From an uncultured virus (IMG/VR IMGVR_UViG_3300044724_004089) (lineage: Duplodnaviria; Heunggongvirae; Uroviricota; Caudoviricetes), in the IMG/VR virus record IMGVR_UViG_3300044724_004089: a stretch of DNA of 20,000 nucleotides. One strand, written 5' to 3'. Below the pieces are notes generated by a model, which was not told where the DNA came from, made no database searches, and saw only the letters and a list, made by a program, of their open reading frames with translations. Below, one piece after another: positions 1 through 17,216 of the stretch. Numbering within the stretch: the first letter of the stretch is position 1; each line of letters begins with the position of its first letter. A program made the position numbers and the translations under genes.

Positions 1-873
1 GATAAATACGATAAAAATTTAGACAAAGCAAAAAATGATTATGATGATTCTGTTTGTTATGATAGAAGTTTAACAAATTGTTTAAAAACTAATAAAAAAA
101 TAAAAGCAGTATTAATAGCAACAAAACCAGAATCACATTTAGATATTGCAAAATTGTGTTTAAAATATAATAAACATATATGGATAGAGAAACCTGTCTG
201 TGCTACTTACAAAGAGGCACTTGCATTACAAGAATACCATAATAAGATAAACAGTAGATTAAGAGTGATGGTAGATCACACCTTTTTATTTCACCCTGCC
301 ATACATAAATTATCATCAATAGACATAGGCGAACCACTATATTATGATAGTCATAGAATCAGTTTAGGTCTATTTCAAAAAGATGTAGATGTTGTGAAAG
401 ATTTAGCAATTCACGATCTAGCAATTATTAAGTATCTGTATCCTATGATGAAATTAAAGAAGAAGACAATAGTAAAGCATAATCATATAAATGATATGAA
501 AAATCAAGCAATATTGTGTTTAGAGTTCGAGCAGAGTGGTATCGTAAAGAAAAAGTTTACTGCAACCATTAATTGCAATTGGGTCAGTCCTGTAAAGAAG
601 AGAGAAATAATCTTGACAGGTACTAAAAAATCTGTTATATATGATGACATTGACGTAAACAAAATAAAAGTTTATGACACTGGAGATATAGGTGAAGACT
701 ATAATATCAATCAATTGGGTGATATGATTAGTCCTAAAATAGATACAACAGAGGCACTTGCAAATGGTAGAGAAAACTTTTTAAGTGCTATTGATAACGA
801 ATGTAGACCTATGATGTCAGACTTAAACTTTTCAGTTGACTTGATGAGATGGATAGATGATACCATATTATGA
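1..873 (+). CDS. Gfo/Idh/MocA-family NAD-dependent oxidoreductase (sugar dehydrogenase), 5'-truncated by window edge
   Basis: Frame is open from base 1 (DKYDKN...AVLIATKPESHLDIAKLCLKYNKHIWIEKP). Family motifs IAT-P--H, EKP and DLAIHD are present. Confidence 0.88.
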   Translation, partial: DKYDKNLDKAKNDYDDSVCYDRSLTNCLKTNKKIKAVLIATKPESHLDIAKLCLKYNKHIWIEKPVCATYKEALALQEYHNKINSRLRVMVDHTFLFHPAIHKLSSIDIGEPLYYDSHRISLGLFQKDVDVVKDLAIHDLAIIKYLYPMMKLKKKTIVKHNHINDMKNQAILCLEFEQSGIVKKKFTATINCNWVSPVKKREIILTGTKKSVIYDDIDVNKIKVYDTGDIGEDYNINQLGDMISPKIDTTEALANGRENFLSAIDNECRPMMSDLNFSVDLMRWIDDTIL

Positions 874-1951
874 TATGAATGAAATTCATAAACCTCTAAA
901 AGAAGAGTTTATGAGAGAAGTTGAAGAGTTACTTCGCAGAGGTGATTTTGTTTTTGGAACAGACAAATTTGAAGAAGATTTTGCAGAGTTTACAGGTGCA
1001 AAGTATTGTGTTGGTGTTAACAGTGGTACATCAGCATTAATACTTGCTCAATTTGCCTGTGGTGTTCGACCAGGTGATAAAGTTACTACAGTTTCACATA
1101 CATTTACTGCTACAGTTACAAGCATAAAACATTTAGGTGCTACACACGAATTTGTAGACATAGATGAAAAGACATATTGTATGAATCCTGATTTATTAAA
1201 TGTTGACTATAACACAAAAGTAATATTACCTGTTCATATGTATGGTAATGCTTGTGATATGCCAAGTATATTAAATAAAAAATCTGCTAATACAACTGTC
1301 ATAGAAGACTGCTCACAAGCACACGGTACAAGAATAAATGGTCAGCACGTTGGTACTTTTGGTAAAGCAGGTACATTTAGTTTTTACCCGGGAAAGGGTA
1401 TTGGTGCTTTTGGTGATGCTGGTTGTATTATAACTGATGATGAGGGGTTAGCAAAAGAACTAAAGGAACAAAGAAGTTGGAAAGAAAATGATGTTGGTTT
1501 TAATTTTAGAATGGCAAATATAAATGCTAAATTTTTAAGTTTAAAATTAAAATATTATCCAGAGGTGTTAAGAGCAAAAAGAGAAATTGCAGAATACTAT
1601 AACAAACATTTAGATTATTGTTATGTAAACCCAGGTGTAGAACATAGTTATCATATTTATCCAATATTACATAGAGATAGAAACAACTTAATTAGAAGAT
1701 GTGGTGATGAATTACAACTTAAAAAACATTATGATAAACCTGTACATCATAATCCAGCATTTCACTTCACATCTAAAACTTGCACATACTGTAGTGCTGA
1801 AGAATTTACAGATTTTAATTTACCAATTACAGATCAGATATCTAACTCACAAGTAAGTGTGCCTATATATCCAGGTCTAAATAAAGAAGAAGTTGTTGAT
1901 ATTTTACAAAAACATTGGAGTGGTAATGGTTTATCTAGTTCCGTTTTATAA
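857..1951 (+). CDS. DegT/DnrJ/EryC1/StrS-family PLP-dependent sugar aminotransferase
   Basis: Motifs NSGTSAL, VILPVHMYG, IEDCSQAHG and FSFYPGK (PLP lysine), followed by GAFGDAG. Confidence 0.95.
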   Translation: MIPYYDMNEIHKPLKEEFMREVEELLRRGDFVFGTDKFEEDFAEFTGAKYCVGVNSGTSALILAQFACGVRPGDKVTTVSHTFTATVTSIKHLGATHEFVDIDEKTYCMNPDLLNVDYNTKVILPVHMYGNACDMPSILNKKSANTTVIEDCSQAHGTRINGQHVGTFGKAGTFSFYPGKGIGAFGDAGCIITDDEGLAKELKEQRSWKENDVGFNFRMANINAKFLSLKLKYYPEVLRAKREIAEYYNKHLDYCYVNPGVEHSYHIYPILHRDRNNLIRRCGDELQLKKHYDKPVHHNPAFHFTSKTCTYCSAEEFTDFNLPITDQISNSQVSVPIYPGLNKEEVVDILQKHWSGNGLSSSVL

Positions 1952-2741
1952 GAACGCATCATTTAAAATAAAAGAGGCACCAGAGGTAATTGATTTTGTC
2001 AAAAAGAAGAGATACGATTATCATAGATTTTTAAATTGTTTAAGTGAATCATTTTACAGATACAATCCAGATGGTAAATTAATATTGTCCACAGATAATC
2101 ACACAAATCCATCAGGTTATGAGGGTCATTATTATAGACAAGACACTGATGAAAAAACTATCATACAATCTAAAGTTTACAATGAAACGAAATTTATATG
2201 TGATGACAATGGGTATGATGAGAATATAATTATGTGTGGAACAGACCATCTTATCAATAGAAACTTAGATAAGTTGTTTTTAAATCAAGACTTTGATATT
2301 AAGATACCTATAAGAAAAGGTACACGAGTTAACAATGCTATGATAGTTGTAAAGAAAGTTACAGATAATGTTAAGAGATTTTTTGATTATCGTTATGAAA
2401 GATTTATACAGAAGAACAAAGACCCACATTGGGACTGGTATGGTGACCAAAGAACATATGATAATATTTTAAGAGAAGAATTACATCTATTACCTGTTCG
2501 TGACCCACCTCAAAAATTTGATTACAAATTAGGTTCATACATTGTTAGAGGTTGTAAAATAAAATTAATCGAATATGGTGGTAACGAATGCGGTAGTTTT
2601 GATATATGGCCACACCATAGAAGAGGGTTTGAAGATAATACTTACTTCTACGATTTTAAAGGTAAAAGAAAAGCATATTTTTTCACATCATACGAAAAGG
2701 AAAGGAGAAACTATGAACGAAAAAAAGAAAAAAATTTATGA
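1926..2741 (+). CDS. Putative nucleotide-diphospho-sugar transferase (GT-A-like)
   Basis: ATG 1926 with GGAG SD at 1917-1920. Has LSTD, a degenerate DxD (GTD), N-x-x-(hydrophobic), WYGDQ and a C-terminal xFKG motif. Sits in the sugar cluster. Confidence 0.55.
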   Translation: MVYLVPFYKNASFKIKEAPEVIDFVKKKRYDYHRFLNCLSESFYRYNPDGKLILSTDNHTNPSGYEGHYYRQDTDEKTIIQSKVYNETKFICDDNGYDENIIMCGTDHLINRNLDKLFLNQDFDIKIPIRKGTRVNNAMIVVKKVTDNVKRFFDYRYERFIQKNKDPHWDWYGDQRTYDNILREELHLLPVRDPPQKFDYKLGSYIVRGCKIKLIEYGGNECGSFDIWPHHRRGFEDNTYFYDFKGKRKAYFFTSYEKERRNYERKKEKNL

Positions 2742-2982
2742 AAGAAATCCTGATACAGGTGAAGTAAGAGAAAGAGAATTCAATGATTTTACTGGTGAAA
2801 CAATAAGAATTATACACGATAAAAAACCAGAAGATTATGGCACTGCTAAAATGATACCTGCATATAATCCAGATGCACCTTGGATTGATGAGAGAGTAAA
2901 TGAAAATCTTGATGGTGAACTATTGAATGAGGATAAAAATGATGAACAAGAAGATAGGCAATTATCTATTCCCTTCGAGTGA
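2713..2982 (+). CDS. Hypothetical acidic phage protein (IYERNPDTGEVRER)
   Basis: Strong AAGGAG SD directly before ATG 2713. The ORF-track start at 2575 would overlap the upstream gene by more than 160 nt. Confidence 0.7.
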   Translation: MNEKKKKIYERNPDTGEVREREFNDFTGETIRIIHDKKPEDYGTAKMIPAYNPDAPWIDERVNENLDGELLNEDKNDEQEDRQLSIPFE

Positions 2983-3580
2983 TACACATTTCGAAAGATG
3001 GATATTAGACGGAGAGTATCAGAAGAAACAAAGAGATGCTCTCTTTGAATATATGGAAGAACGTAGACCTATAGAATATATTTTAGATGTAGGTGCCCAC
3101 GTTGGTTTGTGGTCAAGACCTATGATGCATAGAGCAAATACAAAATATATTTGGGCATTTGAACCTAATCAATTAGTCAGAGAATGCTATGTTTTAAATA
3201 TGGGTGGTTTTGATAACTATTCAATATATCCATTTGCATTAGGTGATAAAAATAGAAAAGGTCATTTAAATGTAGAAACTGATAACTCTGGTAATACAAA
3301 CATACACCCTACAAAAAATGGTGATACTGAGATAAGAACATTAGATAGTTTTAACTTTGAGCATATTGATTATATTAAAGTTGATGTAGAGGGTTTCGAA
3401 TATAACTTTCTAAAAGGTGCAGTTGATACTTTAAATAGATGCAGACCATTTGTTCATCTAGAAATGAAATCAAAGAATATGAGAAACAGTAAAGAAGAAT
3501 TTACCAGATTTATGAAAAATATAGGATACAGTCAAGTGTTGAAAGTAGGAGCAGAGGTATTATATGATTATAACACATAA
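2927..3580 (+). CDS. FkbM-family SAM-dependent methyltransferase
   Basis: Motifs LDVGAHVG, AFEP, ALGD and IDYIKVDVEGFE. The true start may be one of the Met codons a few codons downstream. Confidence 0.93.
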   Translation: MRIKMMNKKIGNYLFPSSDTHFERWILDGEYQKKQRDALFEYMEERRPIEYILDVGAHVGLWSRPMMHRANTKYIWAFEPNQLVRECYVLNMGGFDNYSIYPFALGDKNRKGHLNVETDNSGNTNIHPTKNGDTEIRTLDSFNFEHIDYIKVDVEGFEYNFLKGAVDTLNRCRPFVHLEMKSKNMRNSKEEFTRFMKNIGYSQVLKVGAEVLYDYNT

Positions 3581-4385
3581 ACTTGCTTGGGATAAATGTT
3601 TATCACATAAGTTATTTCCACTTATAGAAAAAGGTTGGAAAGATACAGATAGACCTGTGCATTTCTTTTGGGGATTAGCAGGTAAAAATATTAAAGAAAT
3701 TGCAGAATGTGAAGAGAAAAAAGAAGAATGGTATTATATTGATATTGGTTATATTACAGATGATATAACTAGATACCCTACACCAGAGATCACAAAACCA
3801 GATACAACTTACTTTAGAATTGTTAAGGGTGGATTACATACAATAAGAGGTAAAGTTGGTGATGGTGCCAGACTAAAAAGATTACAAAGAGAGGGTTTAG
3901 ATGCTGAATTTAAAGGTTGGTATACAGGTGATACTAAACACGTTTTAATATGTCCATCATCACCCACTGTAACAAGACAATTAAATAATATGACACAAGA
4001 AGATTGGGTATTTGAAGTGAAACTAGAATTAGAAAAACATACAGATAGAGAGTTGATAGTTCGTAATAAACCAAGACCTGGTAATGAATGGTGGGGAACA
4101 AACATTAGAGATCAACTAAAAGATTGTCATTGTTTAGTTACTAATATGAGCATTGCATCAGTAGATGCTATATTAAATAGAGTTCCTGTGATTACAGATG
4201 GTAGAAATGTTGCGTGGGCAGTTGCATCAAGAGATCCAAAGTATGTAGAGAAACCATTTAAACCTGGTAAGAAAACGGTTTTAGAGTGGTTAAAATTTAT
4301 TACCGAGCAACAATTTACTATGGATGAGATAGAAAATGGTACCGCATACAAAATATTAAAAGAACAAGGTGTTGTAAATGAGTAA
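3564..4385 (+). CDS. Hypothetical protein, possibly glycosyltransferase / capsule-polysaccharide-modification-like
   Basis: 273 aa ORF with YIDIGY, VRNKP and C-terminal CLVTNMSIASVDAILNRVPV, resembling GT-B/KpsS-like C-termini. Supported by cluster context. Confidence 0.45.
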   Translation: MIITHKLAWDKCLSHKLFPLIEKGWKDTDRPVHFFWGLAGKNIKEIAECEEKKEEWYYIDIGYITDDITRYPTPEITKPDTTYFRIVKGGLHTIRGKVGDGARLKRLQREGLDAEFKGWYTGDTKHVLICPSSPTVTRQLNNMTQEDWVFEVKLELEKHTDRELIVRNKPRPGNEWWGTNIRDQLKDCHCLVTNMSIASVDAILNRVPVITDGRNVAWAVASRDPKYVEKPFKPGKKTVLEWLKFITEQQFTMDEIENGTAYKILKEQGVVNE

Positions 4386-4548
4386 TTATGATAAAACTGA
4401 ATATCAAATAACAGTTGCTAAAAATATGACAAGTGAGTTGCTAAACTTCTATGAAAAATACAAGAAAGATGAAAAAGAAAATATTATCTTAAAAGCAAAT
4501 TTAATAATAGATCAATTAGAAAGAGTGAAAAAAGATTTAAATGATTAA
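4378..4548 (+). CDS. Small hypothetical protein (56 aa, MSNYDKTEYQ...KKDLND), not in ORF track
   Basis: Translated by hand. Fills the gap exactly, overlapping both neighbours by 8 nt. Confidence 0.65.
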   Translation: MSNYDKTEYQITVAKNMTSELLNFYEKYKKDEKENIILKANLIIDQLERVKKDLND

Positions 4549-5233
4549 TTTTTGTTGTGTGTTATATGGTACAAAATATAGCACAGATTATGTACAAAAC
4601 TTATACAATATGGTCAAAAGACACCTGACTATAGAACATAAGTTTTATGTCTTTACTGATAATGTAAGAATGCAGAACATCATACAAGGTGATGTAATTG
4701 TGCAACAGTTTCCTCTACACGATATGCAAGGGTGGTGGAACAAAATGCAGTTATTTCACCCAGATAACGGTTTATCAGGTGTCAATCTTTATATGGATTT
4801 AGATGTCGTTATTCTTAAAAATATAGACTGTTTTGCTACTTTCTCATCAGATACAACATTTAGCATTACATCAGATTTCAATGGTAGAATGATATGGTAC
4901 AATTCGAGTATTATGAAGTGGCATAGTGAAACTATGAAACCAATACTTTGGGATGAATTTATCAAGCAAAGACAACACTGGTATCGTCTACAAGGTGATC
5001 AAAATGCTATTACAGAGTTATTAAGACAGAACAAAGACTTTCATAAGAACAATGTTAGAACATTTCCAGATGATTGGTCTAACTCTTATAAGTGGTTTGA
5101 TAGAGAAAACCCTAGATTTGGTAAAAATTTATGGACATTTGAGCAAAAATCAGACAGTAAAGTAGCAGTATTTCACGGTTTTCCTAAACCACATCAATCA
5201 GAAGAACAGTGGGTTATAGATAATTGGAAATAA
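4541..5233 (+). CDS. Glycosyltransferase (GT-A fold, GT8-like), type common in marine T4-like phages
   Basis: Motifs GTKYS--YV, WWNK, YMDLDVV (DxD), NSS, GDQ and VFHG-PKP. Confidence 0.8.
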   Translation: MINFCCVLYGTKYSTDYVQNLYNMVKRHLTIEHKFYVFTDNVRMQNIIQGDVIVQQFPLHDMQGWWNKMQLFHPDNGLSGVNLYMDLDVVILKNIDCFATFSSDTTFSITSDFNGRMIWYNSSIMKWHSETMKPILWDEFIKQRQHWYRLQGDQNAITELLRQNKDFHKNNVRTFPDDWSNSYKWFDRENPRFGKNLWTFEQKSDSKVAVFHGFPKPHQSEEQWVIDNWK

Positions 5234-5238
5234 AGTTC

Positions 5239-5284
5239 TTGACTTTTTTGACGGTCCTGCTATTATAATAGTATGAGTGATTCG
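5239..5284 (+). promoter_or_regulatory. Early sigma70-type promoter with downstream TGATTCG
   Basis: TTGACT (5239-44), 16 nt, TGn-TATTAT (5261-66), AATAGTAT, then TGATTCG at 5278-84. Homologous to the cassettes at 10144 and 10595. Confidence 0.85.
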
Positions 5285-5309
5285 TTAATAATAAAAGAAA
5301 GGACAAACT

Positions 5310-5588
5310 ATGACAACGTATAATAATGATGATATTTACCAAATCCTAAATGAAGAAATTGGGGTCGATCAAGATAAAATCAAGGTCAACGTTGATAAAA
5401 TTGACACACAAATGTCAATTCTAGTTGAAACACTGAAGAAAATGCAAGTTCAACTAAACATTCTTCAGAATGATAATAAGACACTAAAAGCAGAAAATAC
5501 TGCGATTATATCGAAGATAGATTCAGAAAATACTGCGATTATGTCGAAGTTAGATTCAATTGAGCAAGATATTCTATTAACCGGATAA
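5310..5588 (+). CDS. Hypothetical coiled-coil protein (early)
   Basis: AAAGGA SD. Heptad-rich sequence with an internal 11-aa duplication. Confidence 0.8.
   Translation: MTTYNNDDIYQILNEEIGVDQDKIKVNVDKIDTQMSILVETLKKMQVQLNILQNDNKTLKAENTAIISKIDSENTAIMSKLDSIEQDILLTG
5491..5558 (+). repeat. 33-bp in-frame tandem duplication
   Basis: cagaaaatactgcgattatatcgaagatagatt and cagaaaatactgcgattatgtcgaagttagatt, 2 mismatches. Confidence 0.95.
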
Positions 5589-5604
5589 TAAAAGGAGATA
5601 CACT

Positions 5605-5877
5605 ATGGATTATTCTAAACAATTTAATAAAAGAAAGATTGAGTTCTTTGCCTCACTAATAAAAAGCATTGACTATAAGTCTTTTAAAAGTCAAGAAGAC
5701 TATGAAAAGACTATAGAAGGAACGTATATGACTATGTTTAGACACAATACAAAGGGTCAATACGTTTATGAAAACCCTAACCCTAACGCACCTGAAGATG
5801 AGGTTTGGTTAGTAGGTGAAACCTATGATGATGACGATAGAAAAAAAGTTCTTGACATTATTCACAAAAGGGTGTAA
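5605..5877 (+). CDS. Hypothetical protein
   Basis: AAGGAG SD; 90 aa ORF. Confidence 0.8.
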   Translation: MDYSKQFNKRKIEFFASLIKSIDYKSFKSQEDYEKTIEGTYMTMFRHNTKGQYVYENPNPNAPEDEVWLVGETYDDDDRKKVLDIIHKRV

Positions 5878-5905
5878 TATAATAATATAAACAATAAATG
5901 ATTCG
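5852..5905 (+). promoter_or_regulatory. Early sigma70-type promoter with downstream TGATTCG
   Basis: TTGACA (5852-57), 17 nt, TAATAT (5875-80). Upstream A-tract. TGATTCG at 5899-5905 runs into the AAAGGA SD. Confidence 0.8.
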
Positions 5906-5917
5906 AAAGGACTAAAT

Positions 5918-6127
5918 ATGACACTAACAAATGAACAAATAATCGATTTAGAAAATAAAGCATTCTCTGTATATCAAGATTTACAGGCAACTCTAGCAGG
6001 ACAATCAATGTCTGATGTTGATACTCTAGAAGATAACTTCAACACTATTGCAGACGAACTTAATACTAGTTCAGAAGACCTGTGGGAAAAGATGGAATGC
6101 TTTTATGATCAATATATAAATAGATAG
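5918..6127 (+). CDS. Small acidic hypothetical protein (early)
   Basis: AAAGGA SD; 69 aa. Confidence 0.8.
   Translation: MTLTNEQIIDLENKAFSVYQDLQATLAGQSMSDVDTLEDNFNTIADELNTSSEDLWEKMECFYDQYINR
6115..6122 (+). promoter_or_regulatory. Possible T4-type late promoter TATAAATA
   Basis: Exact gp55 consensus, 12 nt before ATG 6135. Could be chance in AT-rich DNA. Confidence 0.4.
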
Positions 6128-6134
6128 GAATAAA

Positions 6135-6323
6135 ATGACATACAATGAATTAGTAACTATTTTTGACGAGAGTTTCAACTATGCTCTAAATTTTAAAAGT
6201 TGGAAACAAAAAGATTTTATAAAGTTTGTAAAAGACTTTATGAACAACAAGACAGAGTATTATAAAGATGAATTCTTTATGAATAATTATAATGACAAAG
6301 TGAAAAAATATTTAGGAGTATAA
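6135..6323 (+). CDS. Hypothetical protein
   Basis: AGGA SD; 62 aa. Confidence 0.7.
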   Translation: MTYNELVTIFDESFNYALNFKSWKQKDFIKFVKDFMNNKTEYYKDEFFMNNYNDKVKKYLGV

Positions 6324-6542
6324 ATGGGTATGATGGATGATGCCTGGCGTGAGAGTGTGAGGAGCAAGAAAGTGGATAAAGACGAAAAAATATTTGATGA
6401 TATATACCTAGCAGAAGTAAAAGGTAGAACAAGAACTTCTGATGGTGATTTTACTACAGTAGGTAATAAAGATATTGATGAGATAAAAGAAATTCTAAAA
6501 CATCTCATAGAAAAACTTGACAAGATTTCAGGAATGAGATAG
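6324..6542 (+). CDS. Hypothetical protein
   Basis: AGGAG SD; abuts the previous stop codon. Confidence 0.7.
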   Translation: MGMMDDAWRESVRSKKVDKDEKIFDDIYLAEVKGRTRTSDGDFTTVGNKDIDEIKEILKHLIEKLDKISGMR

Positions 6543-6545
6543 ACT
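6517..6545 (+). promoter_or_regulatory. sigma70-type promoter
   Basis: TTGACA (6517-22), 17 nt, TAGACT (6540-45). The next ATG at 6557 has no SD, so the mRNA is probably short-leader or near-leaderless. Confidence 0.65.
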
Positions 6546-6556
6546 ATAATTATATT

Positions 6557-6871
6557 ATGAAAAAATTGACCAAAAAACAAAAATTACAAAAAGCACAGAA
6601 TGAACATAGAAAGTTTTTATTATCTATGGGTTTGACTATTAACACTAGAAATAGAGTTATTATCAAACAAAGATTAGGCACACCGTTTCCTGACTTGTCT
6701 ACAAAAGAAGAGTACAAAACAAGCAACAATATATCAGGTATAGGTAGAAAAAAATGGTCACCTAGTAAACCTTATATTCCTGCAGGGAAAACAGTGGGTA
6801 TTGGTTATAACAAAGGTACATATCAATTAGTTGATGGTTCTGATATTAAAACAATGGGGAGGAAAGTATGA
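6557..6871 (+). CDS. Basic hypothetical protein with C-terminal YNKGxYQ motif seen in T4-like phages
   Basis: Lys/Arg-rich; ends TVGIGYNKGTYQLV...KTMGRKV. Confidence 0.75.
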   Translation: MKKLTKKQKLQKAQNEHRKFLLSMGLTINTRNRVIIKQRLGTPFPDLSTKEEYKTSNNISGIGRKKWSPSKPYIPAGKTVGIGYNKGTYQLVDGSDIKTMGRKV

Positions 6872-7080
6872 GTGATTTTAAGTTAACTGTATCTGATTTT
6901 GATGATTGCTCAACAATAATATGTTTGAGTGAAAGAGCAAAAGAATTTTGGAATAAACGAGAGTATTCTAAATATGTGATCGTAGGTAATTCTCAGAATA
7001 ACCTATATGTTATTAACAACTTTGATAAAAGGAAAATTTGTAATGAAATTCGTGAATCTAATATGGATTTTACTGATTAG
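6868..7080 (+). CDS. Hypothetical protein
   Basis: GGAGG SD; ATGA overlap with the upstream stop codon. Confidence 0.7.
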   Translation: MSDFKLTVSDFDDCSTIICLSERAKEFWNKREYSKYVIVGNSQNNLYVINNFDKRKICNEIRESNMDFTD

Positions 7081-7522
7081 TGTATTGCTAGTAAATTGTG
7101 CTAGTCGTTCACAGAAAGGTGCTATTATAGGTGGAGCATCAGGTACAGGTACTTGTGTATCTTTAGGTGTGCAGAACCCCTATCTAGCATCTGTATGTGG
7201 TTTGATAGGTGCATTTGCTGGTGCTGAACTAATGTATAATGATGATTATGATGTACACAATGCTACATTTGTAGATCATTTAAATAATGGTCCTCAAGGG
7301 GCATCATACACAAATTGGTATAATCCAAATACAAAAAACAGTGGTATTATTCATACTACTAGGTCTTATATGAAAGGACCAATTAAGTGTAAAGATTACA
7401 GTGCAACAGTTGATGTAACTAATCAATGGCCTGTATTAGGTTATGGTACTGCACCTACAAGAGAAGTAGTACACGGAATTGCGTGTCAATTACCAGATGG
7501 GAGGTGGTTTGAATATGAATAG
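7043..7522 (+). CDS. Lipoprotein, Rickettsia 17-kDa surface antigen / glycine-zipper-like
   Basis: AAGGA SD before ATG 7043. Signal peptide with lipobox LVNC, glycine zipper GAIIGGASG...GLIGAFAG, W-NP-T-NSG, C--Y, and GIACQLPDGRW. Confidence 0.82.
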   Translation: MKFVNLIWILLISVLLVNCASRSQKGAIIGGASGTGTCVSLGVQNPYLASVCGLIGAFAGAELMYNDDYDVHNATFVDHLNNGPQGASYTNWYNPNTKNSGIIHTTRSYMKGPIKCKDYSATVDVTNQWPVLGYGTAPTREVVHGIACQLPDGRWFEYE

Positions 7523-7895
7523 TTTATTAAAAATAATGCTGATAGCATTTTTTATATTGTTATGTGTTATAGCAATAGTGAGAGATAGTGATGCTGGAGA
7601 TGATGTATTGTATAGTGAAATTGTGCCTTCACCAAGAAACGTTGATGGTCAACACTGTTTAATAAAACAAATTATTAAAAAGAGTGGTGACACCATAATC
7701 AAAGAAGAAATTATGGAATGTAGTGATGGTAGAAAAAGAATGGACGGTCCTAGTTATTGGGGATTGTTTGCTGAATTTTACTATAGAGATGTATCTGCAC
7801 CTGAATATTGTAGATATTATAGTAGAGATCGTCACGCATTTAAGTCGCACGGCAAAACTTGTTTAAAAACTAACGGAAGGTGGGAAATCAAATGA
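7515..7895 (+). CDS. Exported/membrane-anchored Cys-containing hypothetical protein
   Basis: GGAGG SD, hydrophobic N-terminus. C-terminal CRYY...GKTCLKTNGRWE resembles the end of the upstream lipoprotein. Confidence 0.7.
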   Translation: MNSLLKIMLIAFFILLCVIAIVRDSDAGDDVLYSEIVPSPRNVDGQHCLIKQIIKKSGDTIIKEEIMECSDGRKRMDGPSYWGLFAEFYYRDVSAPEYCRYYSRDRHAFKSHGKTCLKTNGRWEIK

Positions 7896-8059
7896 TAAAG
7901 AACTTGATTATAATAGGTCTTATAACTTGGTTGATTTATGTTATAGGATACAAACAATTTTTCAATGGTATACGAACTACGGTTGACAAAGTTGAAGAAT
8001 TGGTAGATAATAAAGACAAATTAATTGATAATTTAGATATTGAAAGTGAGGAAGAATAA
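7892..8059 (+). CDS. Small membrane protein (55 aa, MIKNLIIIGLITWLIYVIGY...), not in ORF track
   Basis: Translated by hand. ATGA overlap upstream and TAATG overlap downstream. N-terminal TM helix. Confidence 0.7.
   Translation: MIKNLIIIGLITWLIYVIGYKQFFNGIRTTVDKVEELVDNKDKLIDNLDIESEEE
7983..8011 (+). promoter_or_regulatory. Possible sigma70-type promoter
   Basis: TTGACA (7983-88), 17 nt, GATAAT (8006-11), upstream of the lipoprotein gene at 8059. Confidence 0.35.
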
Positions 8060-8679
8060 TGAAATATATTATGTTAATAGTGATAGTTAGTTTACTTGGT
8101 GCTTGTTCTAGTATGGGTAACTACAAAATAAAAAGTGAGAGTGGTGATGTTGTCAATACAGTACCAAAGTGGTATATGGCAGACATTAAAGAGTCAAGGG
8201 CGTGTGATACTTCTATGTTCACAAAGAAAGACGATAATAAAGTATGTATCTATGGTATGGGTACTGCCGTTTCACCTAGTTTAGATTTAGCAGTAGAAAA
8301 AGCAAAACTAAAAGCAAAAGCAGAACTTGCCGATTTAGTTAAAGGTGAAATGAATAAGCAGTCAAAAGCATATGCGAAAGAAGTTGGTCAGAGTGCTAAT
8401 AATAAACAAGTAGCAAATGATTTTGAAACAGTAACAGTCAATGAAATCAAAGCAACTGTTGTAAAAGGTTATGAAGTCTTTGAGCAAGATGTTACATTGA
8501 CACAAAACGGAAACTATAGGGCGTGGGTTGGTTTGAGATTACCTCTTGGTGAGTTTAATAAATTGCATAATTATAATGCAGATGAGATTTTAAATTCATA
8601 CAAAATAGAAGATAAGTCACAAGAGGCATACTCGAACCTTATGAAAGAAGGTTCAAATGAAAATAGAAATATTCAGTAA
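8059..8679 (+). CDS. LPP20-like lipoprotein
   Basis: Lipobox LGAC, VPKWY, G-G-A-S--LDLA-EKA---AKAELA and Y-AWV, typical of LPP20-type domains. Confidence 0.75.
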   Translation: MKYIMLIVIVSLLGACSSMGNYKIKSESGDVVNTVPKWYMADIKESRACDTSMFTKKDDNKVCIYGMGTAVSPSLDLAVEKAKLKAKAELADLVKGEMNKQSKAYAKEVGQSANNKQVANDFETVTVNEIKATVVKGYEVFEQDVTLTQNGNYRAWVGLRLPLGEFNKLHNYNADEILNSYKIEDKSQEAYSNLMKEGSNENRNIQ

Positions 8680-8923
8680 ACCTAACTGCATCTATTGTGA
8701 TAAATCCAAGACTCTGTTAAAGGGTCTTGGATTGTCGTATGTTGAGAACAGTATCAATGATTACAACACTAAACAAGAGTTTTTAGAGGCGATTGGTAAA
8801 CGTGTCAAAACTGTACCTCAAATTAAAATAAATAGTAAACTAATCGGTGGTTATAATCAATTAGTTGAATACTTTGCTGATAAAGGTAAAGTAAATTTTA
8901 AAGGAGAGATTATAAATGAGTAA
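8657..8923 (+). CDS. nrdC: Glutaredoxin (T4 NrdC-like)
   Basis: CIYC active site, TVPQI and IGGY motifs. Confidence 0.9.
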   Translation: MKIEIFSKPNCIYCDKSKTLLKGLGLSYVENSINDYNTKQEFLEAIGKRVKTVPQIKINSKLIGGYNQLVEYFADKGKVNFKGEIINE

Positions 8924-9086
8924 TGACAACGTAATACCATTTCCTAAAAGCAATATTAGAGAAGTTAAATTAAAAGATATTGCAGAAGATATTGCAAATC
9001 AAATGACAAAAATAAAAGAACAAAGAGAATTAATAGATAACCAGAAAAAATATATTATAGAAAGTATTTTGAATGACAAAAGATAA
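8916..9086 (+). CDS. Small hypothetical protein (56 aa, MSNDNVIPFPKS...), not in ORF track
   Basis: Translated by hand. AAGGAG SD. Shares its N-terminal motif with the next gene. Confidence 0.75.
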   Translation: MSNDNVIPFPKSNIREVKLKDIAEDIANQMTKIKEQRELIDNQKKYIIESILNDKR

Positions 9087-9543
9087 TGTAATACCATTTC
9101 CTAAAAAACATATCGATAGAGATAAACTAATTACTGATAAAAAAGAAGTAAAGAAAATCTCAAAAGAGATAGAGGAAAAACAAACAAGAGAATTTGTAGA
9201 GGCGTGTGTAGATGATACTGCATTACACCTAATTAGATTTTTTTATGATTTAAAAATTCATATAAATTCACCACAATTTATAAGAGATTTTGCATTGACG
9301 GTTGATTCATTAAGAGGTTTAATTTACAGAGATTTTGGTACTAACCACCCTTGTCAAAAATTAGTTGACGAATTAGTATCATTAACAGATAGTAAGACAA
9401 AAGGTCCTACTGCTAAATTAGATTACAAAAGATTATTAAAAAATGTAAAAGCAAATAAAAAAGATGCTTACAGTAAACAAATAAAAGAAGATTTAAAAGA
9501 TATGGAAGATGGTGTCACATTTGACCCGGATTTTGATGTATAA
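9073..9543 (+). CDS. Hypothetical protein (MTKDNVIPFPKK...)
   Basis: 156 aa ORF. Confidence 0.8.
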   Translation: MTKDNVIPFPKKHIDRDKLITDKKEVKKISKEIEEKQTREFVEACVDDTALHLIRFFYDLKIHINSPQFIRDFALTVDSLRGLIYRDFGTNHPCQKLVDELVSLTDSKTKGPTAKLDYKRLLKNVKANKKDAYSKQIKEDLKDMEDGVTFDPDFDV

Positions 9544-9546
9544 ATA
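9539..9546 (+). promoter_or_regulatory. T4-type late promoter TATAAATA
   Basis: Exact consensus at a gene boundary, upstream of an AAGGAG SD and ATG 9571. Confidence 0.7.
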
Positions 9547-9570
9547 TCTTTATGAATTGAAGGAGAAATT

Positions 9571-10131
9571 ATGGTAGATAGTAGATTTAAAGTGGAACAA
9601 TTAAACACTCCACAACAACCACAAGAAAACCCAAATCTTATATCAAAAAAGAGTATGGGTGCTTATGCTAGAACGGCAACTAAATCAAATAGAGCAACGT
9701 ATCACGAAATATTAACAAGAGTTAATAATGCAAAAGATAAACCTAAAAAGTTAAAGATATTACAAGATTATGATAGTGAACCATTAAGAATGTTAATGAA
9801 GGGTGCATTTGATCCTAAAATACAATGGGATTTACCAAATGGAACACCACCATACAAAGCAAATGAGGCACCTTTAGGGACACAACATACTTGGTTAGCA
9901 GACGAGTCAACAAAACTATGGCACTTTTTAGTGGGTGGTAATCCAGGATTATCTAAAACAAGAAAAGAAACTATGTTCATTCAAGTATTAGAAAATTTAT
10001 CAAAAGAAGAGGCACTTTTACTAATAAACATCAAAGATAAGAAGTTAAACAAAGTATATAAGGGTTTAACTGCTAATTTAGTAAAAGATGCGTTTGGTTG
10101 GAATGATGAATTTATGAGAAAAGATGCTTAA
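9571..10131 (+). CDS. Conserved T4-like myovirus hypothetical protein
   Basis: Pattern EIL--V--AK-K--K--IL...AFDP-I-W-LP-G-PPY...RKE-MFIQ-LE-L---EA-LL---KDK, which I recognise from marine T4-like phages. Confidence 0.8.
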   Translation: MVDSRFKVEQLNTPQQPQENPNLISKKSMGAYARTATKSNRATYHEILTRVNNAKDKPKKLKILQDYDSEPLRMLMKGAFDPKIQWDLPNGTPPYKANEAPLGTQHTWLADESTKLWHFLVGGNPGLSKTRKETMFIQVLENLSKEEALLLINIKDKKLNKVYKGLTANLVKDAFGWNDEFMRKDA

Positions 10132-10143
10132 TTAATTTTTTCC

Positions 10144-10188
10144 TTGACTTTTCTGTCGAATATGGTATTATAATAGTATACTGATTCG
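10144..10188 (+). promoter_or_regulatory. Early sigma70-type promoter with downstream TGATTCG
   Basis: TTGACT (10144-49), 16 nt, TGn-TATTAT (10166-71). TGATTCG at 10182-88. Confidence 0.88.
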
Positions 10189-10211
10189 AAATGATAATGA
10201 AAGGAAAAAAT

Positions 10212-10580
10212 ATGACAAACATTCAAAAACAATTAGACACTGGTATTAATAACCTTATTAATCACTGTATTAAAGACTATGAGAGATGGTCAACACGAAA
10301 CGGTACTGAGAAACTTAGTAACTATGGTTCTAGACAAATCGAAAGAGGTCTTGGTATGCACGTCAAAAAAGGTTCAAAATACATAAAAGTTATAAGTGAC
10401 TTGGGTAACGGTCAGCAATCTGTTTGGGGTTTTATCGTTGCTAGTGAGAATGATAAGAAGTTTCAAGTAGGTGATATACTTATGGCGGCAGGTTGGAGAG
10501 GTCCAGCAAGAAATAAAGCAAGAGGAAACGTCTTGTCTGGTAACTTTGGTAGTTCTTGGACTGGTCCTAATTATCTTTAA
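10212..10580 (+). CDS. Conserved phage early hypothetical protein (KYIKV...SVWGFI...GDILMAAGW-GPA-N-ARGN family)
   Basis: AAAGGA SD before ATG 10212. Motif recognised from T4-like marine phages. Confidence 0.8.
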   Translation: MTNIQKQLDTGINNLINHCIKDYERWSTRNGTEKLSNYGSRQIERGLGMHVKKGSKYIKVISDLGNGQQSVWGFIVASENDKKFQVGDILMAAGWRGPARNKARGNVLSGNFGSSWTGPNYL

Positions 10581-10592
10581 TTAGGACTTTTT
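10564..10592 (+). terminator. Intrinsic terminator / stem-loop
   Basis: Perfect 10-bp stem gtcctaatta/taattaggac with loop tctt, followed by TTTTT. Overlaps the stop codon and abuts the next promoter. Confidence 0.8.
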
Positions 10593-10594
10593 AC

Positions 10595-10639
10595 TTGACT
10601 TTTTCGTCAGATATGGTATTATAATAGTATAATGATTCG
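10595..10639 (+). promoter_or_regulatory. Early sigma70-type promoter with downstream TGATTCG
   Basis: TTGACT (10595-600), 16 nt, TGn-TATTAT (10617-22). TGATTCG at 10633-39. The span 10594-10642 matches 10143-10191 at 44/49 nt. Confidence 0.88.
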
Positions 10640-10651
10640 AAAGGAAAAAAT

Positions 10652-10822
10652 ATGACAAACAATAATATAAATGTAGATGAAGTAGTAGAAACTATTGCTA
10701 GAATGAATGCTGACGAAAGAAGAAAATTCGTGCAGACTATGGTGATAAAATGGACAGAAATGTCAACACAAATATCAAATACAATAGAACAAGAACTATA
10801 TCACCAAAAACATTATGGATAA
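10652..10822 (+). CDS. Small hypothetical early protein (56 aa, MTNNNINVDEVV...), not in ORF track
   Basis: Translated by hand. SD/start block identical to that of the gene at 10212. Confidence 0.8.
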   Translation: MTNNNINVDEVVETIARMNADERRKFVQTMVIKWTEMSTQISNTIEQELYHQKHYG

Positions 10823-10825
10823 ATT

Positions 10826-11101
10826 ATGAACAACATTCAAAAAATATTATTAGTGTGTGGTATGATTTTAATTGGTTATCTTACTGTAAAATCCTCACAC
10901 TCACAAGAAATTGATGCATCTAAAAGTTTAGAGTTAGAACTTGAACGAATGGCACACCAATACTCTATTGAAGTCATTAGTATAATGCAACAATATCTGC
11001 CAGCAATATTAGACAAAATTGCTACAGATTTAAGATTAGAGGCAGACAAGAAGTATAAGTGTAAATTACTTGAAGACACGAAGATTGAAGACGATTGTTA
11101 A
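10826..11101 (+). CDS. Hypothetical protein with N-terminal signal/TM segment
   Basis: Hydrophobic ILLVCGMILIGYLTV. Confidence 0.7.
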   Translation: MNNIQKILLVCGMILIGYLTVKSSHSQEIDASKSLELELERMAHQYSIEVISIMQQYLPAILDKIATDLRLEADKKYKCKLLEDTKIEDDC

Positions 11102-11122
11102 CTATATTATGAAAGGACTATT

Positions 11123-11383
11123 ATGTCAAAAGAAATTGATCATTACTTAAAATCATTAATAAAAGATGTACCCGATAAGTTAGACCGTTTTTATACATCA
11201 GAAGAGAAGACAATGGTGTATTATGTGGGTAACTTTGCAGAAGATGTACTAAATAACTTTACAGAAAAGCAGTCAGAAAAGTTATTTAAGAAGATTCGTG
11301 GTTATCACGATAATTACATTTTTCTACAACGTAAGTTAGAAAAAGACTTAGACGGATACGAGTACATTGTCACAAAAAAGTAA
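11123..11383 (+). CDS. Hypothetical protein
   Basis: AAAGGA SD; 86 aa. Confidence 0.75.
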   Translation: MSKEIDHYLKSLIKDVPDKLDRFYTSEEKTMVYYVGNFAEDVLNNFTEKQSEKLFKKIRGYHDNYIFLQRKLEKDLDGYEYIVTKK

Positions 11384-16480: not shown

Positions 16481-16858
16481 ATGATTGTGGCAGAGGATCA
16501 CTTTATAGAAGAAGAAAATTATGTATATGCTGGTAAACATTTAATTGTCGACATATACGGGTTTGATAAAGAATATAAGAAGTTTAAAATGCTATTAGCA
16601 CAAGCATCACAATTAGCAGGTGCTAAATTATTATATGCTTATACACACGAATTTGATGGTGGTGGTATTACAGGTGTCGCCGTGTTAGCAGAATCACACA
16701 TATCATTTCACACTTGGCCGGAGAGAGATTACGTTGCATTTGATATTTTTATGTGTGGAGATACTCAACCATTTAAAGCAATCAATTATATCAAAAAAGA
16801 ATTAAAAGCAGATGACGTGAAAATTAAAACAATTAAGAGAGGTAAAATTGCAAAATAG
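16481..16858 (+). CDS. speD: Pyruvoyl-dependent S-adenosylmethionine decarboxylase proenzyme family (canonical copy)
   Basis: GKHLIVD, GGITGVAVLAESHISFHTWPE and DIFMCG. Confidence 0.9.
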   Translation: MIVAEDHFIEEENYVYAGKHLIVDIYGFDKEYKKFKMLLAQASQLAGAKLLYAYTHEFDGGGITGVAVLAESHISFHTWPERDYVAFDIFMCGDTQPFKAINYIKKELKADDVKIKTIKRGKIAK

Positions 16859-17216
16859 TTGGGGTTACCATTTAATATTAGACTGTAAAGGCAGTAAAAT
16901 GTCTACAGAGTTGGTAAAAGATGTAAAGTTTATAAAAGAGTTTACTAAAATGTTAGTTGATGGTATAGAGATGAAAGCATACGGTGAACCCATAATCGAA
17001 CACTTTGCTACACACGAAGAAAAGGCATCAGGTTTTAGTTTAGTCCAGTTGATAGAAACATCTTCTATCACAGGTCATTTTTGTGATATCAATGGTGATT
17101 TTTATTTAGATATTTTTAGTTGTAAGAGTTTTAGCATTGACACTGCGTTAGATATAGTGTATAGTTACTTCGAACCTAAAGCAATTAAAAAAATATATTT
17201 AGAAAGACAGGCATAA
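16848..17216 (+). CDS. Divergent SpeD-fold pyruvoyl decarboxylase (second copy)
   Basis: WGYHLILD, GFSLVQLIETSSITGHF and YLDIFSCK. Same fold as the upstream gene but with an altered cleavage motif. Confidence 0.8.
   Translation: MQNSWGYHLILDCKGSKMSTELVKDVKFIKEFTKMLVDGIEMKAYGEPIIEHFATHEEKASGFSLVQLIETSSITGHFCDINGDFYLDIFSCKSFSIDTALDIVYSYFEPKAIKKIYLERQA
17137..17165 (+). promoter_or_regulatory. Internal sigma70-type promoter upstream of exonuclease
   Basis: TTGACA (17137-42), 17 nt, TATAGT (17160-65). Confidence 0.6.

Follow-up and report, generated by a model that had tools for sequence, protein, structure and literature searches.

Candidate GcrA boxes at the predicted early promoters of an uncultured T4-like marine phage

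The Locus and Its Four Promoters

The GcrA/CcrM pair is a textbook case of epigenetic transcription control in bacteria, although work on it has hardly gone beyond Caulobacter and its close relatives. Here we describe a stretch of 20,000 nucleotides (nt) from an uncultured member of the Caudoviricetes (IMG/VR record IMGVR_UViG_3300044724_004089; the whole stretch is called the window), in which the heptamer TGATTCG follows each of four sigma70-like promoters, P1 to P4. Judging from sequence comparisons, these heptamers are probably boxes for the GcrA protein of the host (we put the probability at roughly 0.68), lying early in the transcribed sequence (box centres about +5 to +16) behind strong sigma70 promoters of a likely SAR11 myophage. 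The window has 30.6% GC, belongs to a T4-like marine myophage and carries all of its genes on the + strand, among them a lipopolysaccharide (LPS)-type cluster, a glutaredoxin, a DUF6433 protein, two lysis enzymes, a TauD-like dioxygenase, two S-adenosylmethionine (AdoMet) decarboxylase genes and a PD-(D/E)XK exonuclease.

The window contains exactly four copies of TGATTCG, all of them on the + strand (5278-5284, 5899-5905, 10182-10188 and 10633-10639), and its inverted form CGAATCA is absent from that strand. Shuffling gives an expectation of 0.94 copies (standard deviation, sd, 0.96), with four or more in 3 of 200 shuffles. An earlier inspection of the letters alone (the sequence-only reading) had reported the heptamer at these coordinates, downstream of four sigma70-type -10 boxes with intervening gaps of 11, 18, 10 and 10 nt, and had seen no further copy on either strand of the 20 kb; these statements proved exact. 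It had also described generic GANTC sites as scattered through the stretch, and they are indeed present (27 sites), yet depleted relative to an expectation of 45.8 (sd 5.95), all 200 shuffles holding at least 27.

Three of the promoters read TTGACT-16-TATTAT (5239-5266, 10144-10171 and 10595-10622), each with a TG extension before the -10, while the fourth reads TTGACA-17-TAATAT (5852-5880). Every -10 box is overlapped by a TATAAT shifted 3 nt downstream, such that the box centres fall at +8, +8, +9 and +16 from the transcription start predicted by TATTAT/TAATAT, or at +5, +5, +6 and +13 from that predicted by TATAAT. The heptamers lie 13-25 nt upstream of a start codon, and in three of the four cases AAA and a Shine-Dalgarno sequence (SD) come next. 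P1 to P4 occupy the only four sizeable gaps among the + strand genes of the region, and P2 is located within the 3' end of the preceding open reading frame (ORF). The features, all on the + strand, are as follows.

5239-5269, + strand: promoter P1, with -35 TTGACT (5239-5244), extended -10 TGcTATTAT (5258-5266) and TATAAT (5264-5269); 10 of 12 consensus positions
5278-5284, + strand: P1 box TGATTCG, putatively GcrA-type; predicted centre +9 (or +6); upstream of SD aaagga and the ATG at 5310
5310-5877, + strand: two small genes behind P1, 5310-5588 (coiled-coil-like) and 5605-5877
5852-5883, + strand: promoter P2, with -35 TTGACA (5852-5857), -10 TAATAT (5875-5880) and TATAAT (5878-5883)
5899-5905, + strand: P2 box TGATTCG, putatively GcrA-type; predicted centre +16 (or +13); SD aaagga directly next, ATG at 5918
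5918-10131, + strand: about 14 mostly small, tightly packed genes behind P2, including glutaredoxin (8657-8923) and DUF6433 (9571-10131)
10144-10174, + strand: promoter P3, with -35 TTGACT (10144-10149), extended -10 TGgTATTAT (10163-10171) and TATAAT (10169-10174)
10182-10188, + strand: P3 box TGATTCG, putatively GcrA-type; predicted centre +8 (or +5); likely start ATG at 10212
10212-10580, + strand: gene behind P3, 122 amino acids (aa), weak DUF7717 / phrog_5014 match
10563-10588, + strand: terminator-like hairpin followed by a T run, directly before P4 and found at P4 only
10595-10625, + strand: promoter P4, with -35 TTGACT (10595-10600), extended -10 TGgTATTAT (10614-10622) and TATAAT (10620-10625)
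10633-10639, + strand: P4 box TGATTCG, putatively GcrA-type; predicted centre +8 (or +5); then SD aaagga and ATG at 10652
10652-11383, + strand: small genes behind P4, 10652-10822, 10826-11101 and 11123-11383

No family match was obtained for either gene behind P1 or for any of the three behind P4. Paralogy is plain to see among the P1, P3 and P4 cassettes; the window alone therefore amounts to about two independent events, and the strong statistics come from its relatives.

The Heptamer in Related Phage Contigs

The nearest record (G001) is an almost identical phage and therefore contributes no independent evidence. Through the DUF6433 protein we found 80 loci, 11 of which are close relatives (at least 77% identity) that carry 33 of the 36 + strand sites; across the 80 loci a promoter precedes 25 of the 36 sites according to a regular expression, and 6 more by eye. 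A scan of the collection in which only the -35, the spacing and TGnTAYTATAATAGT were fixed, with the downstream sequence left free, returned 121 unique promoters, and TGATTCG stands 4-6 nt further on in 40 of them. Among the N14-class promoters (74 unique), TGATTCG stands unaltered in 38, and in the remaining 36 no GANTC of any kind lies within 25 nt; the heptamer is invariant in this class, the flanking bases carry low information and the spacer positions 0.1-1.2 bits. In IMG/VR the promoter plus TGATTCG pattern was found in at least 121 stretches and its reversed-heptamer control in at least 119, both being lower bounds that yield no enrichment figure.

The box persists where the surrounding sequence does not. 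In two contigs with less than 1% of 31-mers in common with the window (G007 and G008), orthologous promoters retain it at differing distances; among orthologous promoters its position shifts between +5, +8 and +16, and in two cases it overlaps the -10. Box-less promoters occur in these two contigs as well. We further took 11 contigs (436,981 bp) that have at most 6% of 25-mers in common, except for the pair G015/G017 (22-35%). These hold 83 TGATTCG sites versus 9 of the reversed heptamer, and 46 of the 83 lie within promoters. The largest group, the downstream class, comprises 34 sites with TGATTCG on the non-template strand and a centre at +5 to +20, the mode being +8/+9 from TAYTAT and three less from TATAAT. 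A spacer class, which was not a selection criterion for the contigs, comprises 8 sites between the -35 and the -10, with CGAATCA on the non-template strand and a centre at -19 or -21. Of the remaining promoter sites, 3 overlap the -10 and 1 is centred at -18; two extra rows were mirror readings of spacer-class sites and were dropped from the counts.

A census of 7-mers at 95 unique promoter-like sites having an SD and an ATG gives the same two positions: TGATTCG is the top downstream 7-mer (30 occurrences, CGAATCA 0), and CGAATCA is the top spacer 7-mer (7 occurrences, TGATTCG 1). Enrichment at the promoters of relatives, on which the sequence-only reading depended, is thus borne out.

Two further arrangements were noticed. 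At approximately 5766-5779 of G015 (locus L823) two TGATTCG copies stand in tandem, and the opposite strand reads as a promoter, TTGACGAATCACGAATCA..., with the first box and the -35 overlapping. In other marine contigs, many promoters belonging to this family (L536, L541, L588, L596, L601, L609, L626 and others) read TATAATAGTATGAA... and have an ATG that begins 3 nt past the -10, which suggests leaderless or very short-leader transcripts.

Correspondence with GcrA-Dependent Promoters of Caulobacter

The GcrA consensus is given as 'TGATTCG or, more broadly, YGAKTCK' in the relevant passage of Haakonsen et al. (2015, PMC4647560). In the sections of Wu et al. that concern promoter architecture (Wu et al. 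2023, PMC9976885), the box is placed at -20+/-1 or -30+/-2 within the spacer, or at +5 to +30; most GcrA-activated promoters have a single box, and PmipZ has TGAGTCG at +12. The cryo-electron microscopy (cryo-EM) scaffolds described there read, on the non-template strand, TTGACA-CCCGGG-CGAATCC for the -20 class, with its centre at -20, and AGAGTCG plus TGAGTCG for the downstream class, represented by PmipZ (PMC9976885).

All four window boxes are exact TGATTCG, flanks included, and all are promoter-proximal when the start is predicted from the -10, with the relatives adding 8 boxes in the spacer. Strand orientation agrees with the solved complexes in both classes. The phage contigs reproduce both positions and both orientations of the two Caulobacter classes that have been solved by cryo-EM. 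Moreover, the TGA end of the heptamer points to the -10 in both, which would fit a DNA-binding domain tethered to sigma region 2.

The Likely Host and Its GcrA/CcrM Machinery

The T4-like kinship of the window rests on Kyanoviridae relatives. At the nucleotide level the only phage records that resemble it are the Pelagibacter phages Mosig and HTVC008M, which are also its nearest isolates; megablast of the window against phage records gave zero matches, and blastn with the short promoter cassette against phage records gave chance-level matches only. The DUF6433 protein is 64% identical to that of HTVC008M, 52% to that of Mosig and 50% to that of the OM43 phage Melnitz, and at most 48% to those of cyanophages among the matches listed. 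For the M15 endolysin, 375 phage records match; the best 12 come from Pelagibacter podophages (54-59% aa identity), and Caulobacter phages follow (50.7%). Lysins are often common to unrelated phages of one host. For this reason, together with the endolysin kinship and the similar GC content (30.6% in the window, 29.0% in SAR11 HIMB4), we infer that the window phage most likely infects SAR11 (Pelagibacterales). The alphaproteobacterial host proposed by the sequence-only reading fits this group. The stretch is contained in estuarine and marine metagenomes, and no RNA run is among the sequencing runs listed as containing it.

A few observations on the window stand apart from its promoters. One run (X19), labelled as a single coded organism and not as a metagenome, holds 42% of the words of the stretch. 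The sugar/LPS-type cluster at 1-5233 comprises a GFO/IDH/MocA oxidoreductase, a DegT aminotransferase, an FkbM methyltransferase and a glycosyltransferase, and Mosig has a comparable cluster. At 16481-17216 the two AdoMet decarboxylase (speD-like) genes are adjacent, with an 11-nt overlap. CTNAG is very rare in the window, with 7 sites where palindromes of equal composition number 35-78, and the counts in G001 and G008 are 15 and 38; the phages may be avoiding a DdeI-type restriction site.

To characterize the host side, five Pelagibacteraceae genomes were reached with a SAR11 16S probe. Full-length GcrA (PF07750) is found in all five, with an E value of about 1e-38. Both domains of the HIMB4 protein can be aligned with those of Caulobacter GcrA (31 of 49 residues identical in the first aligned stretch), and the DNA-binding domain of SAR11 GcrA is about two-thirds identical to that of Caulobacter. 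It retains R33, N34, I37 and G38, the residues of the GcrA pockets for N6-methyladenine (m6A) (PMC5887438). Each of the five genomes likewise has one N6_N4 methyltransferase, a full-length CcrM, that of HIMB4 matching CcrM 6PBD with an E value of 2e-140; a CcrM homolog in SAR11 has been reported previously (PMC3973325), and ctrA is reported to be missing from the group (PMC2877005). The portions of Seong et al. that treat Pelagibacter report a metagenome-assembled genome (MAG), analyzed by single-molecule real-time sequencing (SMRT), in which GANTC is 71-95% methylated and enriched between genes, and Caudovirales MAGs likewise showed methylated GANTC (Seong et al. 2022, PMC9516812).

The host genomes themselves contain few boxes, and these are unevenly placed. 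TGATTCG occurs 62 times in the five SAR11 genomes versus 228 for the reversed control, making it about fourfold rarer. Within 800 kb of HIMB4, where ORFs of at least 80 aa cover 95.8%, 7 of 11 TGATTCG sites lie outside ORFs versus 3 of 32 control sites; GANTC occurs 907 times versus 1261-2086 for palindromes of the same composition, and is 8.9% intergenic versus 2.0-4.6% for the controls, part of this being within tRNA genes. The intergenic TGATTCG sites of SAR11 are in sense orientation, just downstream of -10-like boxes, and precede clpX, recA, a tetratricopeptide repeat (TPR) protein, a 531-aa protein and a DUF2721 gene. A gene for a 29-aa lysine-rich basic peptide has two boxes, as does Caulobacter PmipZ, and one further TGATTCG lies in the spacer between proteorhodopsin and acs (acetyl-CoA synthetase). 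The HIMB4 boxes recur at orthologous places in HTCC8051, HIMB1412 and AG-426-E17 despite differing flanks. This small, conserved set looks like a minimal GcrA regulon of SAR11. The set is drawn from genomes G002-G005 (loci L472-L497, L629-L636 and L736-L755).

As a control, we considered a phage whose host is not alphaproteobacterial. Melnitz, which infects the betaproteobacterium OM43, has 12 TGATTCG sites, all genic and none at promoters, as the GcrA hypothesis predicts; occurrence of the same motif in phages of non-alphaproteobacterial hosts had been named in the sequence-only reading as grounds for giving its interpretation up. All of its refuting tests that lend themselves to computation favored that interpretation, which the comparative data support.

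Counter-Cases and Alternative Explanations

A number of results weigh against host GcrA as the reader of these boxes. The cultured SAR11 phages examined do not use them: the myophage HTVC008M has no TGATTCG in 147 kb, the myophage Mosig has 14 with none at promoters, and in five SAR11 podophages the few boxes are essentially all genic, with no promoter association. The Caulobacter T4-like phage Cr30 (loci L757-L786) has 68 YGAKTCG sites versus 11 of the reversed control, yet none of the 43 of 68 contexts (30 loci) inspected by eye is promoter-like; 42 of these 43 are in open frames of at least 58 codons and one is in a 31-codon frame. The excess may be compositional. Generalization to other SAR11 phages and to the Caulobacter T4-like phage was accordingly rejected, and the results for HTVC008M, Mosig, the podophages and Cr30 indicate that box use is a habit of particular myophage lineages and does not extend to every phage with a GcrA-bearing host. 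Closer to the window, 69 distant DUF6433 loci contain 25 unique TTGACW-N15-20-TATAAT promoters with the heptamer at none of them, which makes the feature clade-specific.

Other reservations concern the evidence itself. Degenerate YGAKTCG variants number zero at the phage promoters, a stricter usage than the Caulobacter consensus. The counts of 38 N14-class promoters and 46 promoter sites mix orthologs and paralogs and are not independent events, and the 11 contigs were chosen for having at least one downstream-class promoter each. The spacer class derives from contigs (G014-G021) of 33-35% GC, to which the SAR11 assignment does not extend, the agreement in orientation with Caulobacter relies on one solved promoter per class, and SAR11 as the host of the window phage is itself inferred. 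P1 to P4 are already near-consensus, and an activator may be unneeded. Finally, a reader or methyltransferase could be encoded by the phage. Searches of the 11 motif-bearing fragments (G001, G007, G008 and G014-G021), of HTVC008M and of Melnitz gave neither a GcrA gene nor one for a CcrM-type (N6_N4) methyltransferase, and a search of Mosig gave no GcrA gene; the motif-bearing fragments are 10-48% complete, and the absence therefore holds for the fragments only.

These points bear most directly on the possibility that some factor besides GcrA uses TGATTCG as its operator, either a clade-specific phage protein (for instance a repressor or activator of early genes) or a different DNA-binding protein of the host, in which case the match to the consensus would be coincidence or mimicry. 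Since the box stands at many promoters of one clade and is missing from sister clades, including the cultured SAR11 myophages, a clade-specific phage factor is an equally simple explanation of this distribution and stays the main rival, and both the partial view of each motif-bearing genome and the invariance of the heptamer sit comfortably with it. We nevertheless consider it unlikely. The heptamer is the published GcrA consensus, its two positional classes and their strands agree with the solved GcrA complexes, and conserved SAR11 promoters bear the same box; a 7-bp asymmetric site would also be small for a typical dimeric repressor.

Passive inheritance is somewhat less probable still. Here the heptamer would be a functionless part of a stem-loop and early promoter cassette, spread or homogenized by duplication and recombination in T4-like genomes. 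The clear paralogy of P1, P3 and P4, the abundance of orthologs among the 38 family members, and the terminator-like hairpin before P4, which reproduces the layout of mobile T4-type promoter-early stem-loop cassettes, are what such a history would leave behind. The sequence-only reading had already held that cassette duplication alone could not account for the pattern, and the relatives bear this out in several ways: the spacers vary (0.1-1.2 bits) around an invariant, sharply bounded heptamer; P2-type promoters keep the box despite another sequence and spacing, and orthologs shift it; a different promoter type has it inverted within the spacer, which is not transcribed; and family promoters have either the exact heptamer or no GANTC at all.

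We give a little less credence again to the idea that methylation of GATTC acts by itself and not through GcrA, by way of contacts with RNA polymerase or sigma, of melting, or of replication, packaging or evasion of defense. Methylated GANTC in the Pelagibacter and Caudovirales MAGs, in the passages of PMC9516812 cited above, is compatible with it, as is the depletion of GANTC, whose observed/expected ratio is 0.61-0.68 in the window clade, 0.60 in SAR11, 0.87 in Melnitz and 0.17 in HTVC008M. Selection on methylation as such would concern the palindromic GANTC, whereas conservation here extends over the whole asymmetric heptamer, its flanks and strand being fixed, at positions that agree with a tethered GcrA. 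In HTVC008M (loci L686-L693) the 43 GANTC sites (252 expected) include none that is intergenic, and in canonical form 41 of their 43 heptamers show a purine on the 5' side of the core, with C or A on the 3' side, the other two being CGAATCC.

Least probable of these is a signal in RNA, a 5'-leader element for the stability, processing or translation of early mRNA, as might be suggested by the predicted transcription of all four window copies shortly before a start codon and, in three of them, AAA and an SD: the leaders do not fold (minimum free energy 0 to -1 kcal/mol, z-scores +0.3 to +1.6, no better than shuffles), on which ground a structured leader element was rejected; the heptamer keeps a far more constant distance to the -10 than to the ATG; and boxes of the spacer class, on the opposite strand and upstream of the start site, are untranscribed and so cannot act as RNA. 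Two further candidates, a sigma-dependent pause element and extended SD pairing, were dropped by eye, the heptamer being unlike a -10 and located upstream of the SD.

A Proposed Mechanism and Its Implications

Host GcrA thus remains our preferred reader of the boxes. By analogy with Caulobacter, the host GcrA would be carried on RNA polymerase via sigma70 region 2, and its flexible N-terminal domain would read the heptamer, preferring the adenines of GATTC that are N6-methylated by CcrM. This extra contact could aid the holoenzyme in engaging and opening the promoter, and would be lost once downstream DNA enters the cleft. The first transcription units of the phage would in this way receive a signal that the host keeps at a few promoters of its own (clpX, recA and others). 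GcrA binding, methylation of the phage DNA at the boxes, the start sites, early timing and coupling to the cell cycle are hypotheses on our part, drawn from the comparison with Caulobacter. More tentatively, and with the odds in our view against it, a SAR11-type myophage lineage may have placed its whole early regulon on a host epigenetic reader, with GcrA boxes of both structural classes in use.

Were the proposal correct, this would be the first virus seen to exploit the GcrA reader, and the phage promoter boxes suggest that its first genes are wired into a host epigenetic switch. On the more tentative reading, the first wave of phage transcription would depend on the m6A state of the injected genome, set by the CcrM of the previous host, and on the availability of GcrA and CcrM in the new one. 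Such an epigenetic gate would couple the onset of infection to the cell-cycle or growth state of the most abundant bacterium of the ocean. On the host side, the few conserved boxes (clpX, recA and others) would define the minimal GcrA regulon of SAR11, a small promoter set in a CtrA-less group whose cell-cycle control is poorly understood. The depletion of GANTC in pelagiphages would be recast as possibly regulatory and not only defensive, and a TGATTCG promoter box could mark the hosts of uncultured marine phages from sequence alone. The idea can be tested with a handful of short templates.

Comparison with Known Systems

The closest known counterparts are the GcrA/CcrM-dependent sigma70 promoters of Caulobacter crescentus, such as PmipZ and PcsM; the phage heptamer is identical to their consensus, and each phage promoter has a single box. 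Like that of PmipZ, the box lies on the non-template strand downstream of the start (+5 to +20 in the phages), and phage relatives have an inverted box in the spacer, at -19 or -21, like that of the PcsM-type scaffold. The Caulobacter promoters are chromosomal, whereas those described here are on a lytic phage genome and are AT-rich and near-consensus, with an extended -10 and an invariant heptamer rather than YGAKTCK. GcrA and CcrM are present in both Caulobacter and the presumed host, though SAR11 lacks CtrA (PMC2877005).

The sites of another host cell-cycle regulator have been described in phage regulatory regions. In the passages of Mascolo et al. on 'lytic deferment', CtrA boxes in phages of Alphaproteobacteria are placed such that they may time the phage program to the state of the host, as we propose here, although regulator and mechanism differ; phage genomes scanned with a GcrA matrix showed, in the same passages, no positional asymmetry in any subset (Mascolo et al. 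2022, PMC9437464). The split in GANTC density among pelagiphages concerns the same host group and motif, and likewise involves depletion, which the sections cited here read as possible evasion of defense and in which GcrA is not mentioned (Seong et al. 2022, PMC9516812); here it is the retained heptamers, at promoters, that stand out. Among the papers listed on these subjects, judged by title and the opening of the abstract, we found no report of GcrA boxes at phage promoters.

The phage side of the system resembles the early promoters of T4-type phages, in that strong sigma70 promoters precede clusters of small genes in a hyperplastic region and recur as paralogous cassettes; P1 to P4 have this arrangement, with a sigma70 -35 and -10 before small-gene clusters, their early timing being predicted only. 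Mobile 'promoter-early stem-loop' (PeSL) cassettes of T4-type phages were reportedly described by Arbiol and colleagues in 2010. We know of no T4-type cassette that carries the site of a host epigenetic reader. Unlike in those cassettes, the most conserved element downstream of the -10 is here the heptamer itself.

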